Virus record (IMG/VR): IMGVR_UViG_3300004213_000019
Location: 1-32,314 of that record
Direction: 5' to 3' (one strand)
Length of the DNA stretch: 32,314 nt
From: a virus
Lineage: Duplodnaviria > Caudoviricetes
Shown here: positions 3,352 through 29,411 of the stretch, in pieces
How the letters are laid out: every line of letters starts with the position of its first letter
Position numbering within the stretch: position 1 is the first letter of the stretch
The notes under the pieces: generated by a model
The model's input: only the letters and a program-made list of their open reading frames with translations
Databases searched by the model: none
What the model was told of the DNA's origin: nothing
Position numbers and translations under genes: made by a program

Positions 3352-4950
3352 TCAGCGACCGGGACGGACCTGGAGCGGCCAGGTCGTGCCGCCACCGAAG
3401 TAGGACGACACGTCGATGTTCACGTCCTCCGACAGCGTGGCGACGACCGCCTTGCGGAACTCCGGACCCTGGAGCAGAGCCTTGACCAGCACGCTCTCCA
3501 CCGTGGGCTCGTCCTCCACCTTGGTGGCCGACATCGCCGTGTGCAGGTCGTTCTGCGCCTTCTTGCTCCGAGCCGCGCTCACCAGGTCGGACGTGCTGAG
3601 CTTGATGCCCGCCTGGTGGTTGCGGGTCAGGCTGACCTGACGCGCCTTCTCGAAGGTCGACCGGATGAAGGCCGGACCGTAGTCCTTGACCTCGGCCCAC
3701 ACCGCGTCGTAGTCGATGTCGGTGTCGAGCTGGTCACCGAGCACCTTCTGGAGCATCAGCTCGATGGCCGCACGGTCCAGGAAGCCGATCTCGATCTGGC
3801 TGGTGAGCCGCTGAGCACGCGTCATCGCCGGGTCGATCCGCTCGATGAAGTTGGTGGTCAGCACGAAGGAGACCTCGGACCGCTTGTCCGCGCCGTCGAA
3901 CAGGTTGGTCAGCGTGGACCGGCGAGCCGCCGTCATCTTCTCGTCGAAGAACTTGTCGAAGTCCTCGATGATGACGATGGACCGGCTGTACATCTTGGCC
4001 ACGTTGACCACGCGGATCAGCTCGTTCAGCGAGTCGGCCCCGGTGGGCTTGAACTCGATGGTGGTCACGCCGTACTGCTGCGCCAGCACCGAGGTGGCGA
4101 TGGTCGCCGCCGACTTGCCGGTGCCGAGCGGACCCCAGACCAGGGCCTTGAAGGTGGTGTCCATCCCGTTGGCCACCAGCAGGTCGTGGTCGGTGATCAG
4201 GCCGAACACATCGTCGGTGAGGCGCTCCTTGACCTCATCGGTGTAGACGATGGTCGGGTCGAGCTGACGGCTGACGTGCTTGAGGGTGAAGGACCCCCGG
4301 TTGTCGGCCTCGTAGGACAGCACCTTGCCCTTGTAGATGGAGTTGGTGCGCAGCTCGTCCTCCACCATCAGGAAGAGCCCGTCGATGGCTGCCTGGTTCT
4401 TCACCAGCGAGGTGATGTTGAGGACGAACAGCCCCGTCATCTCCGCGTTGGCCCAGACGCCGACCTCGATGGTCGCGTCGAGCGGCTCGAAGTCGAACTC
4501 CGTCATCAGCACGTTCTCGGTGATCTCGCGCCCGAACTGGTCCAGGCCGACCACGACCGGCGTCTTGACGGGCGGGTGCTCGCCACCGAACATGTCGAAC
4601 CGGGTGTTGCCGATGCCGGTGGAGCCGTAGACCCGGTTGAAGATGCGGGTCAGGGCCACAGCGCCGTCCTCCACACGAGCGTTGTACTGCTTCATGTAGA
4701 CGGTCTTCTTCTGCTGGTTGGCCTCGTACTCCATCAGCGTCTTGGCCCCCTTGGTGGGGGTCATCGAGCCCGGCAGCGAGATCTTGTTCGCCGGGTCCTG
4801 GTGGCGCAGGATCGGGGACTCGTTGTTGATCGTCTTGTCCGCGTACGCCGCGAGCTGGTCCAGGACCGACTCCTTGCGGGCGGTCTGGCGCTCGTGCTCG
4901 CGCAGGGCCTCGGCGGTAGCAGCGGCGTCGATGTTGGTGTTCTGAGCCAT
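3352..4950 (-). CDS. AAA+ family ATPase, 532 aa
   Basis: Walker A GPLGTGKS, Walker B IVIIEDFD, sensor/SRH LTTNFIERIDPAMTRAQRL; start MAQNTN with GAGGA RBS. Confidence 0.9.
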   Translation of the reverse strand: MAQNTNIDAAATAEALREHERQTARKESVLDQLAAYADKTINNESPILRHQDPANKISLPGSMTPTKGAKTLMEYEANQQKKTVYMKQYNARVEDGAVALTRIFNRVYGSTGIGNTRFDMFGGEHPPVKTPVVVGLDQFGREITENVLMTEFDFEPLDATIEVGVWANAEMTGLFVLNITSLVKNQAAIDGLFLMVEDELRTNSIYKGKVLSYEADNRGSFTLKHVSRQLDPTIVYTDEVKERLTDDVFGLITDHDLLVANGMDTTFKALVWGPLGTGKSAATIATSVLAQQYGVTTIEFKPTGADSLNELIRVVNVAKMYSRSIVIIEDFDKFFDEKMTAARRSTLTNLFDGADKRSEVSFVLTTNFIERIDPAMTRAQRLTSQIEIGFLDRAAIELMLQKVLGDQLDTDIDYDAVWAEVKDYGPAFIRSTFEKARQVSLTRNHQAGIKLSTSDLVSAARSKKAQNDLHTAMSATKVEDEPTVESVLVKALLQGPEFRKAVVATLSEDVNIDVSSYFGGGTTWPLQVRPGR

Positions 4951-5017
4951 GATGGTGGTTTCCTCTTCGTGTGTGTGTGGTTGGTTGGTCGTTCGGTCGT
5001 GCTGGTCTCGCATGGTC

Positions 5018-5509
5018 TTACTGGGTCCAGACTGCTGTCTGAACCATGGCAGTCTGCTCATCGGGAGCAGGCTGGTCCCAGTTCCACTGGTAGGAACCGG
5101 GGGTCATGATGCCCACCTGGAACTTCTCGGGGGTGAACCCGAAGAGGGCGTTGTACTCGAAGGAGTGGATCAGGTCGTCGGAGACGTAGACCTTTTCACA
5201 GGAGAAGGAGACCGCATCGATCTCCTTCACATCTGCTCCTGAACGGATGGTGCTGATCACCTGAGCGATCAGGGCGTTCCAGCCGCCCATCTCGTCGGCG
5301 TCGTCGTACCAGCGGATGCCCTTGAGGCGGCACCGGTACATCTCCTTGTAGCCGTCAGTGGAGACGTAGACGCTTGCGTCTGACTCCCCCAACTGCGGGC
5401 CACCAAGGACCACCAGCCCCGCCGCGTCCATGTGCGAGGCGAGGTCTTTCGGCTTGTGGTCGAATCGGTCCAGGATCAGCGAATGGACGATCATCCCTTC
5501 CAGTTTCAT
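5018..5509 (-). CDS. hypothetical protein, 163 aa
   Basis: ATGA overlap with upstream gene, GC3 bias. Confidence 0.75.
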   Translation of the reverse strand: MKLEGMIVHSLILDRFDHKPKDLASHMDAAGLVVLGGPQLGESDASVYVSTDGYKEMYRCRLKGIRWYDDADEMGGWNALIAQVISTIRSGADVKEIDAVSFSCEKVYVSDDLIHSFEYNALFGFTPEKFQVGIMTPGSYQWNWDQPAPDEQTAMVQTAVWTQ

Positions 5510-5761: not shown

Positions 5762-6730
5762 TTAACCTTCCTTGTTGGAGGCCATCTCAGTGGCCGTGGT
5801 CCAGCCCTTCAGGACCAGCGCCCAGTTGTCGTCCGAGACCTGGTGGGTCTGGGCGATCCAGGGACGCAGGGACTCCTTCAGGATGACTCCCGCCTCTTCG
5901 GCGGAAAACTCGTTCACCACGGCGCTGCGGAGCCACTCACCGCAACGCTCGGGGAAGCGCTCAACGTCGTACTCGCCGCTGTTGAGCTTGTCGTCCAGCA
6001 GACGCACGTACACCGCCGACACCGAGGAGGCGTCGACGGCGTTCTCGCGGGCCATCTTCTTCAGCGCGAGCACCTGCTCGTCGTAGTACTTGGCACCGGC
6101 CAGCCGGACGTTGGAGTCACGGAACCAGTGCAGCAGGCGGTGGTAGCGAGCCGCCGCCGTCTCGTACTTGTCGATGCGCTTCTCGTGCGCCCCGCAAAAC
6201 TCCCACTCGGGGTCGTTCTCGTAGGACTGCACATGCGCGGCGGCTTCCTCGGGGGTGTAGAGGATCGAGCCACCGGCATCGGGGTTGACCGCGTTCCCGG
6301 TGTGGATGCGGTCGTGGTCGGGGTGCTCAGCGGTGAAGGCGTCGAATTTCTTGGCCTGGACGTTGTAGCGCCAGTAGGACGCCGCCAGCGGAACCACGAC
6401 GAGGACCTTGCGGATCTGCTTGGCCTCGTACTCGGCAGCCCTCAGCGGGTAGGAGAGGTTCTTCAGGAGCCGCCGACGCAGGCCCCTGATGGGGGCTGAG
6501 GACTCCATGAAGCCCTTGGGGTCCCGATCCCTGTGCATCTGCTCCGCAGCCTCCTGGAAGGCGTTGTCCTTGGCCTGGAGGCGAACGGTGGAGAAGACCA
6601 CCCCGATGGCGATCTGCGTGCCGCCTACCCTAAGGAGGCTGCGCGTCACCGGGGAGGTGGCGATGGTCACGACTGCGGGGGCGACCCGAACGGCGGCGGT
6701 AACGACGTGGGTGAGTGCTGCTGCGAACAT
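5762..6730 (-). CDS. hypothetical protein with hydrophobic N-terminus, 322 aa
   Basis: Start MFAAAL with AGGA RBS; strong GC3 bias. Confidence 0.75.
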   Translation of the reverse strand: MFAAALTHVVTAAVRVAPAVVTIATSPVTRSLLRVGGTQIAIGVVFSTVRLQAKDNAFQEAAEQMHRDRDPKGFMESSAPIRGLRRRLLKNLSYPLRAAEYEAKQIRKVLVVVPLAASYWRYNVQAKKFDAFTAEHPDHDRIHTGNAVNPDAGGSILYTPEEAAAHVQSYENDPEWEFCGAHEKRIDKYETAAARYHRLLHWFRDSNVRLAGAKYYDEQVLALKKMARENAVDASSVSAVYVRLLDDKLNSGEYDVERFPERCGEWLRSAVVNEFSAEEAGVILKESLRPWIAQTHQVSDDNWALVLKGWTTATEMASNKEG

Positions 6731-6789
6731 GATTCCTGCTTTCGTCTGTTGGTTCGTGAGTGTGGGTACTGCGGGTCTTGCGGTTGGAA

Positions 6790-7479
6790 CTAGCGGCCGG
6801 AGGTGTTGCCGTGGTCGAAGGGGGTCTCCCACCACTCGTTGAAGTAGGTGTCGAGGAGGGTCTCGGTCACGTCGGCCACCCAGTAGAGCCAGTGGTTCAT
6901 CATCTCCTTGGTGATCGAGTCAACCTCGCCACCCGCGTCGTCGACGAACTTCACGAAGTCGTTGACGCCGGTCTCGTGGCTGGCGCGGATCACCAGAGCG
7001 CCGGTCTCGGGCTTGCTGTGACCCTCGGAGTTGGCGAAGGTGACGATCTCGTCGTACATCTGTCCCCGCGTCCGCAGGTACACCTCGCTCATCGCCAGCG
7101 AGCAGTACGCGAGCTTCTTGGCCGTCTCCTTGTCGGCCCCCTCCTCCTTGAGGTGCCAGATGAGGTGCCACAGCCCCGTGCCGACCGCGTTGCGCTCGAC
7201 GGCGAAGAGCTTCCTCAGCCGGGTGACGAAGGCCAGGTACTCGTCCTTGAGGGGCGACTGGACCTCCTCGGGGTTCTCCACCGCCCGGTTGAGCAACCCG
7301 GCGAGCGAGTCCTCCAGGTTGGCCGGTGCGCCTTCAGGGGCTCCCAGGCGGGAGACGTAGACCTGAGGGCCACCGGCACGCGGGTTGTTGATGTCGATGC
7401 CGAGGACTTCCTTGAGCATCTTGGCTACCTCGTCGGGTACTTCCGAACCCTCGGGGGTGTTGAATTCGTTGTCTGACAT
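6790..7479 (-). CDS. hypothetical helical protein, 229 aa
   Basis: GAAAGG RBS, GC3 bias. Confidence 0.8.
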   Translation of the reverse strand: MSDNEFNTPEGSEVPDEVAKMLKEVLGIDINNPRAGGPQVYVSRLGAPEGAPANLEDSLAGLLNRAVENPEEVQSPLKDEYLAFVTRLRKLFAVERNAVGTGLWHLIWHLKEEGADKETAKKLAYCSLAMSEVYLRTRGQMYDEIVTFANSEGHSKPETGALVIRASHETGVNDFVKFVDDAGGEVDSITKEMMNHWLYWVADVTETLLDTYFNEWWETPFDHGNTSGR

Positions 7480-8548: not shown

Positions 8549-9058
8549 TCAGCTCAGGGCGTCGGCGTTGAGCAGAGCTGCGACCTTTTCGCAGTAGTCG
8601 CGGGAGCCGAAGACGATCTTGCCGCCGTCCGGAAGGGTTGTGGCGCTGTAGTCGCCGTTGTTCCTGCGGACGACCTCCCAGGGAACCAGGACCCCGGCGT
8701 CGCTGCTCCCGACGTAGCGGGACTCGTTGACGTTGATGAGGTCCTTCACCGTGTTGAAGCGGTTGCGGTCCTCGATGGGTCGGATCGGCTTGGCGACGTA
8801 GGGCGTTTTCTCCGCTTCCACCGCTTCGAACAGGCGCTTGATCTCGGCGTCGATGATCTCCTTGGACTTCTCGATCACGTTGGTGATCTTCGTCGCTGAG
8901 GTCCTCCCGAACATCGGGGTGAGGCGCTTGCCGTCGACCCCGAGTTGGTAGATGCGGGAGTAGAACCCGTCCTGGGCCTTGGCCAAGATGTCGACCTCCC
9001 AACCATCGGGGATCTGTGGGTAGCCCTGCATCTCGACGATCTTTACCTGACCGGCCAT
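8549..9058 (-). CDS. hypothetical protein, 169 aa
   Basis: Start MAGQVK with AGGAAGG RBS, GC3 bias. Confidence 0.8.
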   Translation of the reverse strand: MAGQVKIVEMQGYPQIPDGWEVDILAKAQDGFYSRIYQLGVDGKRLTPMFGRTSATKITNVIEKSKEIIDAEIKRLFEAVEAEKTPYVAKPIRPIEDRNRFNTVKDLINVNESRYVGSSDAGVLVPWEVVRRNNGDYSATTLPDGGKIVFGSRDYCEKVAALLNADALS

Positions 9059-9078
9059 GGGTAAATCCTTCCTGAAAC

Positions 9079-9111
9079 GAAAGAAGGCCCCCAGCGGAAT
9101 TGCTGGAGGCC
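9079..9111 (-). terminator. terminator-like hairpin in leader
   Basis: GGCCTCCAGC/GCTGGGGGCC stem followed by UUCUUUC. Confidence 0.7.
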
Positions 9112-9141
9112 ATTTGGGCATACGGAACTGCTTGTGACTCA

Positions 9142-9170
9142 ATTATCTCATTTTTGACGCTCAGAGTCAA
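9142..9170 (-). promoter_or_regulatory. SigA-type promoter P1 with overlapping inverted repeat
   Basis: TTGACT-N17-GATAAT; TTGAC-N7-GTCAA palindrome at 9154-9170. Confidence 0.75.
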
Positions 9171-19223: not shown

Positions 19224-22085
19224 ATGACCAAAATTATGGCACGGATTCGAATCGCAGACAACAGCCCAAAAACCCCCAAGTACTTCTCAGTTCACACCCA
19301 CAGCCGCTACTCCGCGCAGGACGCCCTTCCGAGCGTCAAGGACATCGTGACCCGAGCCGCTGAACTCGGCTACCAGGGCCTGGGACTGACCGATCACGGC
19401 AACATGGCTGGGTCCATCGAGCTGTACATGGAGTGCCAGAAGGTGGGCATCAAGCCCTTCCCTGGCTCGGAGATGTACCTCGTGTTGGACCGCTCGGACA
19501 AGAAGGCCAAGCGCTACCACATGTGCCTGCTGGCTTATACCTCGCAGGGCTACCGCAACCTGGTCAAGATCAGCACCGACAGTCACAAGAACTTCCACAA
19601 CAAGCCGCTGGTTGACATGTCCGACCTGGCGCGCTACCACGACCTCGGCTGGTCTGAGGGCATCGCTCTCACCACCGGGTGCTTCTTCGGCCTGGTGATC
19701 ACTCGTCTGATCAACGACGGGTACGAGGCAGCCAAGCAGGTCGTGGCCTCCTACGCCTCCTGGTTCGACACCTACGTCGAGATCCAAGACCACTGCATCG
19801 AACACGACGAAATGGATGAAGATGAGATCGCTGAGAACCTTGCTCGGATTGCCGAAGAGCTTGATCTACCGGTCATTGTTACGCAGGACAGCCACTACGT
19901 CCACGCTGACGACAAGCCAGTCCATGAAACACTCAAGCGCCTTGTGTCTTTCGGAACAGACGCTGATGAAGCTGTCTTCCCGGGAGATGGCTTCCATCTG
20001 GTGGATGACGCGTGGATGGAACGTCATCACTCGGAGGCTATCTACAACCGAGGGCTTGCCGGTCTGGAACTTCTCCTTTCTCGGCATGACCTCCGCATCC
20101 CTGAGGCGGATGAGTACAACTATCGAGTCCCATCTATCAGTGACGACCCGATTGGAGATCTCCGAAAGCGTTGTACTGCGGCTCTACTCAGACGGGGGCT
20201 TCTTCAGGATAAATACCTCGACCGTCTGGCCGAAGAGATCGAAGTTGTCGAAGCCTCTCGGATGGGCAACTACCTTCTCCTCGTAGCTCAGGTCACCGAC
20301 TGGATGAGGGCCAACAATATCTTCTTCCAGACTCGTGGTTCGGCTGCGGGCTCGCTGATCTGCTGGATGCTGGGCATCTCCAACATCGATCCGATCAAGT
20401 GGGGTGCTCGCTTCGACCGCTTCCTGTCCAAGGACCGCACCAAGCCACCGGACATCGACCTGGACGTGGAGAACATCTACCGCCAGAAGGTCATGGAGAT
20501 GCTTGCAGAGCGCTACGCAGTCGGCCAGATGTGCACGTGGTCGGTCCTGGGGCTCAACGCAGACGAGCAGGGCAAGGGCTCGCTGAAGGTCAAGTACTTC
20601 GGCAAGATGCGCGCCTACGCCAAGGCCAAGGGCGTGGAGCTGCCTGCTCTCACCTGGGAGACTGTCCCTGCTGAGGACAAGAAGATGCTCTACACGCTGT
20701 CCGACCACGAGGCCCTGGCCAACGCCGGGGTCCACCCGTGCGGCATGGTGCTGGTGAACTCCAGGACCGAGCTGGAAGAGATGGTGCCCATGATGTGGGT
20801 GGCCTCCTCCAAGACGATGGTGACCCAGTACGACGGTCCGGTGATCGAGTCCATCGGCCTGATCAAGCTCGACCTGCTGGGGTCGAAGACCATGAGCGTG
20901 CTGAGAATCGCCTGTGAGAACATCGGCATCTCCACCGATGACCTGGACAAGATCCCGTTCAACTCCTCCAAGGCGTACCAGATGATCGCCAAGGGGGACA
21001 CGGACGGCTTCTTCCAGATGGAGGGCTACACGACCCAGCGCGGCTGTCGTGACATGAAGCCCAACAAGATCAGCGAGGTCATCGACGTGATGGCCCTGTT
21101 CCGCCCTGGTGTGATGAACTCCGGTGCCACCCAGTCCTACATCGACCGGAAGTTCGGTCGGCAACGGATACCGGAGCGTCACGAGATCATCGACAAGGGC
21201 ACCAAGAGCACCAGAGGCATCCTGCTGTACCAGGACCAGATCATCGCCATCCTGCGTGACCTGGGGCTGTCTCCGGACGATCTGACGGCGTTCCTCAAGG
21301 CCGTGAAGGCGTCCAACAAGAACGTCGAGAAGGCGAAGAAGGACATCGACCACTACATGCCCATCATCGAGGGCCTGTGCAAAGAGAGGGGGATGAGCGA
21401 TGAGGACTTCGCCTGGATGCAAGAGGCTTTTGTCGCGTTTGCTGAGTACTCGTTCAACATCGCCCACGCTACGGTTTACGGGATCACTGCGTACCGGTGC
21501 GCTTATCTGGCAATCCACTACGGGGTTCAGTTCCATGCAGCTCTTCTGGCGGTGGCGTCGGGCACCGATAAGGAAGCGCAGTACATCACTGCCACCCGCA
21601 AGCGTGGCTACCGGATCAAGCGACCGGACATCAACTCGTCAGGTCTGGTCTACACCGTCGACAAATCTGGAAAGTCGATTCGAAAGGGCCTACTCTCAGT
21701 GCCTGGCGTCGGACTGGGGATGGCACCCGACATCGTTGCCAGCCAGCCCTACAGCGACTGGGATGACTTCGCCACCAAGATGATCGGCACCAAGGTGACT
21801 GGCATCAAGCCGTTCAAGCCGGGAGAGACCTCAGAGGCCGAACTGGTGGGGGCGGTGGCCAAGCTCCATGCAGCGGGCGCGTTCGAGGACTCCATCGGTT
21901 CTCTGCCCCTGGGTAATGGCAAGGTCAAGAAAGTGATCAAGCTGTTACCTGATCCAGAGGAACATGAGGAGCCTGAAAGCGCTGACGACGACTACCTTGA
22001 AGAGGAACCAGTCGAAGAGTCAGGAGTGACCATCACGATCAACATCAACGGCAGGACCCACAGATTGGTTGAGGAGACCGCATGA
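19224..22085 (+). CDS. dnaE: DNA polymerase III alpha subunit (family C, PHP + palm), 953 aa
   Basis: HTHSRYS, TDHGN, QDSHY (PHP); RGSAAGSL, PDIDLD, KLDLLG, YQDQI, FNIAHA. Confidence 0.95.
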   Translation: MTKIMARIRIADNSPKTPKYFSVHTHSRYSAQDALPSVKDIVTRAAELGYQGLGLTDHGNMAGSIELYMECQKVGIKPFPGSEMYLVLDRSDKKAKRYHMCLLAYTSQGYRNLVKISTDSHKNFHNKPLVDMSDLARYHDLGWSEGIALTTGCFFGLVITRLINDGYEAAKQVVASYASWFDTYVEIQDHCIEHDEMDEDEIAENLARIAEELDLPVIVTQDSHYVHADDKPVHETLKRLVSFGTDADEAVFPGDGFHLVDDAWMERHHSEAIYNRGLAGLELLLSRHDLRIPEADEYNYRVPSISDDPIGDLRKRCTAALLRRGLLQDKYLDRLAEEIEVVEASRMGNYLLLVAQVTDWMRANNIFFQTRGSAAGSLICWMLGISNIDPIKWGARFDRFLSKDRTKPPDIDLDVENIYRQKVMEMLAERYAVGQMCTWSVLGLNADEQGKGSLKVKYFGKMRAYAKAKGVELPALTWETVPAEDKKMLYTLSDHEALANAGVHPCGMVLVNSRTELEEMVPMMWVASSKTMVTQYDGPVIESIGLIKLDLLGSKTMSVLRIACENIGISTDDLDKIPFNSSKAYQMIAKGDTDGFFQMEGYTTQRGCRDMKPNKISEVIDVMALFRPGVMNSGATQSYIDRKFGRQRIPERHEIIDKGTKSTRGILLYQDQIIAILRDLGLSPDDLTAFLKAVKASNKNVEKAKKDIDHYMPIIEGLCKERGMSDEDFAWMQEAFVAFAEYSFNIAHATVYGITAYRCAYLAIHYGVQFHAALLAVASGTDKEAQYITATRKRGYRIKRPDINSSGLVYTVDKSGKSIRKGLLSVPGVGLGMAPDIVASQPYSDWDDFATKMIGTKVTGIKPFKPGETSEAELVGAVAKLHAAGAFEDSIGSLPLGNGKVKKVIKLLPDPEEHEEPESADDDYLEEEPVEESGVTITININGRTHRLVEETA
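19816..20286 (+). CDS. putative overprinted +1-frame gene inside dnaE, 156 aa
   Basis: ORF limits match a sharp rise in A/T-ending dnaE codons. Confidence 0.5.
   Translation: MKMRSLRTLLGLPKSLIYRSLLRRTATTSTLTTSQSMKHSSALCLSEQTLMKLSSREMASIWWMTRGWNVITRRLSTTEGLPVWNFSFLGMTSASLRRMSTTIESHLSVTTRLEISESVVLRLYSDGGFFRINTSTVWPKRSKLSKPLGWATTFSS
21400..21783 (+). CDS. second putative overprinted +1-frame gene inside dnaE, 127 aa
   Basis: GAGAGGGGG upstream of ATG; local rise in A/T-ending dnaE codons. Confidence 0.35.
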   Translation: MRTSPGCKRLLSRLLSTRSTSPTLRFTGSLRTGALIWQSTTGFSSMQLFWRWRRAPIRKRSTSLPPASVATGSSDRTSTRQVWSTPSTNLESRFERAYSQCLASDWGWHPTSLPASPTATGMTSPPR

Positions 22086-28331: not shown

Positions 28332-28723
28332 GTGATGTAGCACGGGTAGACATCAACATCTACCAAGGTGCTGACTGGGCTGTCCAGATCTACTGGACTT
28401 CAGGGGATATGCGTCCCTACTCGGTCCAGGCACCCATGCGGATGGAGATCAGGGACCAGCTCGGACAGGTTCCCGTGGTGCTCCAGACGAACCAGACCTC
28501 TGAGGACCTGGAGACCAATCCGGACAACCAGCAGATCCTCTTCAACCCCGAGTCGGGGCTCATCCAGCTTCACCTCACCGGAGACGAGACGAGCGTGCTC
28601 GCCCCTGGGATGTACGACTACGACCTCTGGGTCCACTACAAGTCGACTGTCGGGGTAGTGGCCAAGCGCGCCATCCTCGTCGGTCGCGTCATCGTTCAAG
28701 GGAGGATCACCCAGAATGTCTAA
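28328..28723 (+). CDS. virion structural protein (baseplate upper/Ig-like)
   Basis: I.IYQGAD, RMEIR, G.I.L.L...ET, Y.YDL, ILVGRV. Confidence 0.65.
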   Translation: MSDVARVDINIYQGADWAVQIYWTSGDMRPYSVQAPMRMEIRDQLGQVPVVLQTNQTSEDLETNPDNQQILFNPESGLIQLHLTGDETSVLAPGMYDYDLWVHYKSTVGVVAKRAILVGRVIVQGRITQNV

Positions 28724-29411
28724 CATCGTGCGGATGAACACCGGAGATGTCATCCAGATCAGGGAGGGCGTCCTTCAAGGCATCGGCCCCCAGGGTCAGA
28801 TGGGTCCTCAGGGCCCTCAGGGCATTCCTGGTCCTCAGGGAGCGCAGGGACTGCCTGGTCCCATGGGTCAGATCGATGACTTCTACACCAAGGTCACCAG
28901 CGAGGGAAACTCTCAGTCGGTGGCTTCCAACACCCTCACGCTGCACTCGTTCGCCAGTGTGATCCACGACGATGCTTCCATCGTCGCCTCGGTGACCAAC
29001 TTCATCGTCCCGGTGGGCGTGTGGGACGTGTCGTGTGGTCTCCAGTTCGACAAGCCGTCCACTCAGAACGCCGCTGGTGCTCGTCGCATCGTCATCCGTT
29101 ACGACACGGTGGACATCGAGTCCGCGACCATCCCAGCTCTCACCGCGCTGGACACCCGCTTCCAGGTCAACACCCTGATCGATGCCACGTCTTCGTCCAA
29201 GGTGCTCTCGGTGCTCGTCTTCCACACCGACACTGTGGCCATCGCAGTACATGGCAACCTGGTGATCAGTCGCAAGGGTCCTGGTTCTCGTGGCCCCTCT
29301 GGTCCTCAGGGTGTCGCTGGTCCTCCTGGACAGCAGGGTCCGACCGGTCCTCAGGGTCCTGCTGGTTCCCTGGTTACTTCTGAGACCACCTTCGCTCAGA
29401 TCGGTGGTTAG
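28716..29411 (+). CDS. collagen-repeat minor tail/fiber protein
   Basis: Two (Gly-X-Y)n blocks flanking a beta-rich domain. Confidence 0.75.
   Translation: MSNIVRMNTGDVIQIREGVLQGIGPQGQMGPQGPQGIPGPQGAQGLPGPMGQIDDFYTKVTSEGNSQSVASNTLTLHSFASVIHDDASIVASVTNFIVPVGVWDVSCGLQFDKPSTQNAAGARRIVIRYDTVDIESATIPALTALDTRFQVNTLIDATSSSKVLSVLVFHTDTVAIAVHGNLVISRKGPGSRGPSGPQGVAGPPGQQGPTGPQGPAGSLVTSETTFAQIGG

Follow-up and report, generated by a model that had tools for sequence, protein, structure and literature searches.

A probable overprinted gene in the +1 frame of the PHP region of a phage dnaE

The DNA considered here, called the window in the following, is the record of an uncultured virus, apparently of soil-bacterium type, with 32,314 bases (completeness about 40%), whose gene content includes a helicase, a primase, dnaE, and Cas4-like, RuvC-like and HNH genes; an SSB-like protein is encoded as a neighbour. 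The phage dnaE gene occupies positions 19224..22085 of the plus strand and encodes, in the ancestral frame, a protein of 953 aa with PHP, polymerase, finger and HhH domains (Pfam matches PF02811, PF07733, PF17657 and PF14579); the ATG at 19236 may instead be its start. Two open reading frames are nested in the +1 frame of this gene, ORF1 at 19816..20286 (plus strand, 156 aa, TAG stop) and ORF2 at 21400..21783 (plus strand, 127 aa). ORF1 is co-terminal with an island of A/T-ending dnaE codons at 19785..20291 of the same strand, and ORF2 lies in a weaker island. A Logan contig of run X1, possibly from the same sample, corresponds to 19224-20742 with zero differences.

In an alignment with Mtb DnaE1, the phage DnaE is collinear over the island region. 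The motif D222-x-H224 (19887..19895, plus strand; numbering by hand count), which lies downstream of the +1 ATG, is aligned with D226/H228 of Mtb DnaE1, where according to an excerpt of PMC5636811 the exchange D226N abolished the exonuclease activity. H24, H26, D33, H58, E83, H99, C153, D222 and H224 are invariant among 11 close DnaE homologues. With its PHP, polymerase and finger domains and the PHP metal ligands, the protein appears to fit the PHP-exonuclease type. The closest match to it in a cultured phage is found in Gordonia phage GMA6 (35.6%), and from this match and the GC content we infer an actinobacterial host. Two peculiarities of the DnaE proteins were observed alongside: the phage protein ends in an acidic extension of about 45-55 residues (window 21930-22085) with raised A/T at third codon positions (A/T3), which its closest homologues lack, and the homologous proteins P0055, P0081, P0088 and P0091 carry an extra domain, PF14890, which we take to be associated with intein splicing.

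The ORF1 product is basic (net +15) and rich in S, L, T and R; read from a second ATG at 19822, it comprises 154 aa. No transmembrane segment was found in it (maximum 19-residue hydropathy 0.57). The frame itself is stop-free from 19711, corresponding to DnaE codon 163, upstream of the ATG.

The preliminary description had reported an excess of A/T-ending dnaE codons over ORF1 together with a change in leucine codon use, and the recount is in good agreement with both. At 19812-20261, 69 of 150 codons end in A/T, whereas the count on either side (19620-19800 and 20400-20580) is 7 of 61; counted to 20286, there are 72 in 159 (48 T, 24 A). Leucine shifts from CTG to CTT and CTC, with CTT 9, CTC 8, CTG 3 and CTA 2 inside the island, and CTG accounting for 10 of 16 leucine codons upstream and 32 of 45 downstream. 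The optimal two-rate segment is 19800-20288 (log-likelihood ratio 29). An amino-acid-aware model places the end of the island at DnaE codon 356 (quartiles 354-359), with the +1 TAG at codon 354, and its start at codon 188 (95% 177-196), with the ATG at codon 198; a simpler model gives a looser end (median codon 374, 95% 345-396). The claim that island and ORF1 start and stop together thus holds for the end, at the +1 stop, and has to be amended for the start, which precedes the ATG by a few to ten codons. Among 23 long ORFs of the window, this is the strongest internal A/T3 segment (27.9), and the next ones in that scan (18.8 and 16.9) are gene 5' ends. The first 30-50 codons are A/T-rich at third positions in the genes at 3352-5061, 5762-6835, 6790-7479 and 8549-9142 (minus strand), likely an initiation-region effect. 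A short A/T3-rich segment (0.67) was also seen at 29304-29370, within 28716-29411, near the end of a tail-fibre-like gene (coordinates approximate).

The chance of a stop-free +1 frame over this stretch is 0.016 under background codon use, 0.064 with codons permuted in place and 0.17 under the codon use of the island. Taken alone, the openness of the frame in this one sequence is only suggestive, and homologues were needed because the single-genome chance varies between 0.016 and 0.17 with the null chosen.

We gathered 185 loci, of which, after removal of duplicates, 84 at 43% identity or more spanned the region. 29 of these were set aside for A/T-rich flanks or an intermediate p, and the remaining 55 GC-rich loci were classified by third-position contrast alone into 37 island-positive loci, this phage among them, and 18 island-negative loci. 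Codons 201-289 are without a +1 stop in 31 of the 37 island-positive loci (the other six contain +1 stops) versus none of the 18 island-negative ones, and after thinning to less than 70% identity the stop-free frame is found in 12 of 15 loci with an island and in 0 of 15 without. The expectation that the +1 frame stays open over the same interval in related dnaE genes is therefore borne out by the alignment for the island-bearing relatives. Homologues combining +1 stops with normal GC3, named beforehand as a finding that would speak against a hidden gene, do exist, e.g., the 63%-identical L004 and L082, but not among the island-bearing relatives; such loci, with neither island nor open frame, would fit a loss or absence of the gene.

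As A/T3 enrichment alone removes some TGA stops, the null was built by permuting synonymous codons in place within the island. Against this null, 11 +1 stops were observed in the island where 44.8 are expected. The other frames show no depletion (observed/expected: +2, 142/146.9; -1, 110/91.8; -2, 156/127.1), nor do the island-negative representatives (36 +1 stops versus 40.7). Of two control regions, one has 74 +1 stops versus 69.6 expected and the other 72 versus 81.3, a mild depletion (p 0.03). Leucine and valine codons seldom end in TG when the next base is A (6 of 82), an avoidance not seen with other following bases (182 of 552). At dnaE first positions, which serve the +1 frame as wobble positions, the GC excess amounts to 0.19 versus 0.09, with DnaE itself affected, and this phage and L004 differ little in first-position GC (0.74 versus 0.71). 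Even in ORF-free relatives this DnaE stretch is poor in A-starting codons (0.18 versus 0.25-0.27), and judged by its codons the site is permissive for a +1 frame. The five closest proteins (67-70%), available at the protein level, impose no stop on the +1 frame, are compatible with the ATG and share the residue bias of ORF-bearing loci.

On the tree, the island state changes at least seven times, and only four contrasts are both well supported and independent; none of the four runs in the opposite direction, and they are too few to reach significance. The 18 island-negative loci and more distant homologues lack ORF1, which gives it a narrower distribution than dnaE. Profile searches with ORF1-type products returned only a few similar short unnamed proteins. 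L048, nested in an ORF1-bearing clade, has three +1 stops (codons 200-305) and near-normal GC3 while keeping ORF2, an apparent loss of ORF1.

The ends of the nested frame show a pattern of their own. A +1 ATG at DnaE codons 197-201, the top window for +1 ATGs in the gene, is present in 29 of the 37 island-positive loci, versus 13.6 expected from island codon use, and in 2 of the 18 island-negative ones; it is built recurrently from GAT or AAT, at shifting positions. The stops differ by lineage, at codons 290, 295, 305/306, 326-335 and 345-354, and the nested ORF measures 105-156 aa over the family. In the main clade, the largest one, the stop falls at 304-307 in 20 of 22 loci (3.1 expected), made at one or the other of two positions by the rare codons GTA or ATA. 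The position used by this phage is common only approximately, with a stop at codons 345-354 in three loci. A separate clade (L014, L016, L017, L010, L022 and L112) has a single TAG at codon 295, made by the rare codons CTA or TTA, in all six loci. The island follows these ends: at codons 308-325, A/T3 amounts to 0.13-0.14 in loci whose frame has already stopped, to 0.34 in those with a stop at 326-335 and to 0.55 in those with a stop at 345-354. In 27 of 31 loci, the signal drops once the stop of that locus is passed.

The two +1 ATGs lie in an initiation region (19786..19841, plus strand) that is predicted to be weakly structured and has a weak or absent Shine-Dalgarno (SD) signal. The 50-nt window at the first ATG folds with -4.2 kcal/mol, within the weakest 1.5% of the gene, and that at the second with -3.1 kcal/mol, within the weakest 0.8%; across the survey the start region is less structured in ORF-bearing loci (-9.5 versus -12.9 kcal/mol, p 2e-4). 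Duplex energies, calculated with an assumed anti-SD motif, are 0.0 and -3.1 kcal/mol at the two ATGs, and several of the window's ordinary genes are similarly weak in this respect. Upstream of the ATG, relatives have SD-like purine runs (-5.5 kcal/mol, against -2.3 kcal/mol at the remaining +1 ATGs), without any excess over the expectation from DnaE residues (-5.5 versus -5.5). No sense promoter, no Rfam match and, on both strands, no conserved RNA structure (consensus/mean energy at most 0.16 in island windows) were found at the island, and no shared slippery motif was seen by eye in the codon alignments. Of the two routes to the frame proposed originally, independent initiation is favoured by the recurrent ATG and the unstructured start. 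One database protein, P0129, switches from DnaE to the +1 frame near codon 229, the form that a frameshift would give; this switch is probably a sequencing indel.

Signs of selection on the nested protein come from the main clade. Synonymous divergence at codons 270-299 is there 0.38 and 0.26 of saturation, versus 0.83 outside. At codon 272 all 23 of 23 loci have I, V or L in the +1 frame, yet R, H, D or A in DnaE, and similarly at codons 274, 278, 283, 295 and 297 DnaE varies and the +1 residue stays I/V/L or W. The constrained +1 domain (corresponding to 19986..20141, plus strand, DnaE codons ~255-306) follows a disordered N-terminal half and is predicted as beta-beta-alpha-beta-beta (AlphaFold pLDDT about 76-83); searches gave no fold or family match for it. 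The synonymous-site constraint foreseen for a dual-coding segment is thus present in the main clade and missing in two smaller clades (0.83 versus 0.75; 0.83 versus 0.80). No signal of purifying selection on the +1 frame emerged when 12 pairs were compared in a dN/dS-type test (NN/NS 1.01 inside versus 0.80-0.84 outside). For the window's own product, database searches returned no homologue or family match, and modelled alone, without an alignment, it folds poorly (pLDDT 45.9). Against the main-clade profile it scores no higher (z 1.5 and 0.9) than control regions do (1.4 and 2.0), and its hhalign match to the main clade (25% identity) is largely forced by the common DnaE frame. At the level of the family, these sequence comparisons make a strong case for a protein-coding +1 frame; for this phage, the case would rest on position, boundaries and start signature, and its frame may either be a diverged form of that gene or have arisen separately at a permissive site.

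ORF2 repeats the family signature of ORF1, and its occurrence is independent of it. In the window it is preceded by a strong SD-like GAGAGGGGG at 21384-21392, and its openness in this genome alone is uninformative (P 0.35-0.73). At codons 726-800, an island is present in 24 of 64 GC-rich loci and absent from 34, with 6 intermediate. The region is without a +1 stop in 21 of the 24 island loci versus 10 of the 34 island-free loci, and the ATG is present in 17 versus 4 of them. Under permutation, 5 +1 stops compare with 19.8 expected and 17 ATGs with 6.6.

Several other processes could produce an open frame with shifted third positions. The +1 frame may be translated with selection on the act of translation, through dnaE output or mRNA stability, and a largely junk product. 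A start that is conserved while sequence and stop differ by lineage would agree with this, as would the lack of a dN/dS-type signal and the two small clades free of synonymous constraint. Selection of this kind would not require third positions to change along 150 codons, yet the change reaches each stop, and residue-level constraint and a predicted fold are present in the main clade; we regard this reading as improbable. The preliminary description had also offered a +1 ribosomal shift near DnaE codon 198, which would yield a truncated PHP fusion. Given a frame open from codon 163, upstream of the ATG, and a weak SD, such a shift is conceivable, but it has no use for an enriched, recurrent ATG, no common slippery motif is visible by eye in the codon alignment, and the cut would precede D222/H224 of the PHP metal site, which together leave it hardly credible.

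A non-coding cause, e.g., a rare-codon pause at the PHP boundary, an RNA structure or a DNA site, might raise A/T3 with the open frame as a by-product. The chance openness of 0.17 under island codon use and the scarcity of A-starting codons even in ORF-free relatives would allow for it. It is nevertheless very improbable, as the depletion persists under permutation of the island codons and in +1 only, the island tracks the +1 stop and not a DnaE boundary, and the island shows no conserved RNA structure on either strand, no Rfam match and no sense promoter. There is equally scant reason to suppose that the segment was patched in by recombination with a lower-GC donor, or that it is a decaying relic without present function. 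L004 and L082, without an island at 63% identity, and the at least seven changes of island state would suit such an origin, but many separate lineages carry the island at the same start, a broken frame goes with normal GC3 (L048), and the identity to relatives is not anomalous in the island (0.60-0.61 versus 0.55-0.63 downstream). The donor patch, raised originally as a way in which a hidden gene might be mimicked, is unlikely because the protein tree of the segment joins this phage with L002, L004 and L082, the same neighbours as for the rest of DnaE.

Implementing all facts, ORF1 is probably a real, internally initiated, overprinted accessory gene whose translation is predicted. The original proposal, which ascribes the shift at third positions to a second protein encoded in the +1 frame, gains support from the homologues, as island-bearing relatives keep the frame open. 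Ribosomes would load on the dnaE mRNA at the weakly structured ATG at DnaE codon 198/200. The nested protein would need hydrophobic and charged residues, and T- and A-ending codons would replace G- and C-ending ones in dnaE because dnaE position 3 is position 2 of the +1 frame. Upon gene loss, stops and normal GC3 would return. The product would be a small basic protein with a non-enzymatic, accessory and dispensable role while the phage replicates; the repeated losses and the rapid change suggest an accessory protein that the phage can do without and that is produced together with its replication genes. Should it be translated, a role in host interaction or counter-defence is our guess, held tentatively, and a replisome partner is rather unlikely. 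Gene callers drop nested genes; the nested protein was likely missed by annotation here, and many relatives keep the frame open too. In a wider and still speculative reading, somewhat short of an even chance, the phage DnaE family may serve as a nursery for new genes, in which two +1 frames (PHP; finger/HhH) are switched on, extended and lost, one clade folded a new domain, polymerase residues were reshaped, and the products would be accessory proteins of new fold with targets in the host or the replisome.

Loci that carry the nested frame can be matched with loci that lack it, and together with the varied ends and the one constrained clade they would make the birth, extension and loss of overprinted genes testable. 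An internal GC3 dip in GC-rich phages may offer a cheap screen for further nested genes, and dnaE marker phylogenies and synonymous rates would be distorted in island segments.

Nested +1 phage genes are already known as a kind, and to our knowledge few long genes lying wholly within another gene have been described in dsDNA phages apart from those of lysis cassettes. In phiX174 the lysis gene E is nested out of frame in D, and in T7 the genes 4.1/4.2 overlap the primase-helicase gene, a replication gene. Like ORF1, these are out-of-frame phage genes inside other genes. ORF1 has no sequence link to them, and differs in its spread over a broad dnaE family, its lineage-specific ends and repeated loss, and in a host gene that holds a second nested frame. 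An alternative product of a replisome gene is also made from dnaX (tau/gamma) by programmed frameshift, whereas the evidence for ORF1 points to a separate ATG and not to a slippery site. Among the papers listed by our literature searches, we saw no account of a nested gene in a phage dnaE (PMC7017920, PMC8788219 and PMC9936078 provide context), and according to an excerpt of PMC8903798 most of the overlaps annotated in DNA viruses are very short. The embedded o-spanin gene Rz1 of lambda, described in an excerpt of PMC6139136 as lying entirely in the +1 frame of Rz, resembles ORF1 as a +1-frame gene inside another phage gene. Rz1 belongs to a lysis cassette and encodes a lipoprotein that pairs with its host gene's product, whereas ORF1 sits in a DNA polymerase gene and shows neither signal peptide nor lipobox, unlike the o-spanin type. 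Overprinted viral frames are characterised in an excerpt of PMC8227390 as tending to be accessory, disorder-prone, fast-evolving and restricted in distribution. ORF1 resembles the de novo overprinted viral proteins in its restricted distribution, disorder-prone composition and fast evolution. The examples given there are mostly from eukaryotic RNA viruses, whereas ORF1 would be a case in the polymerase gene of a dsDNA phage, with a predicted fold in one clade of its family.
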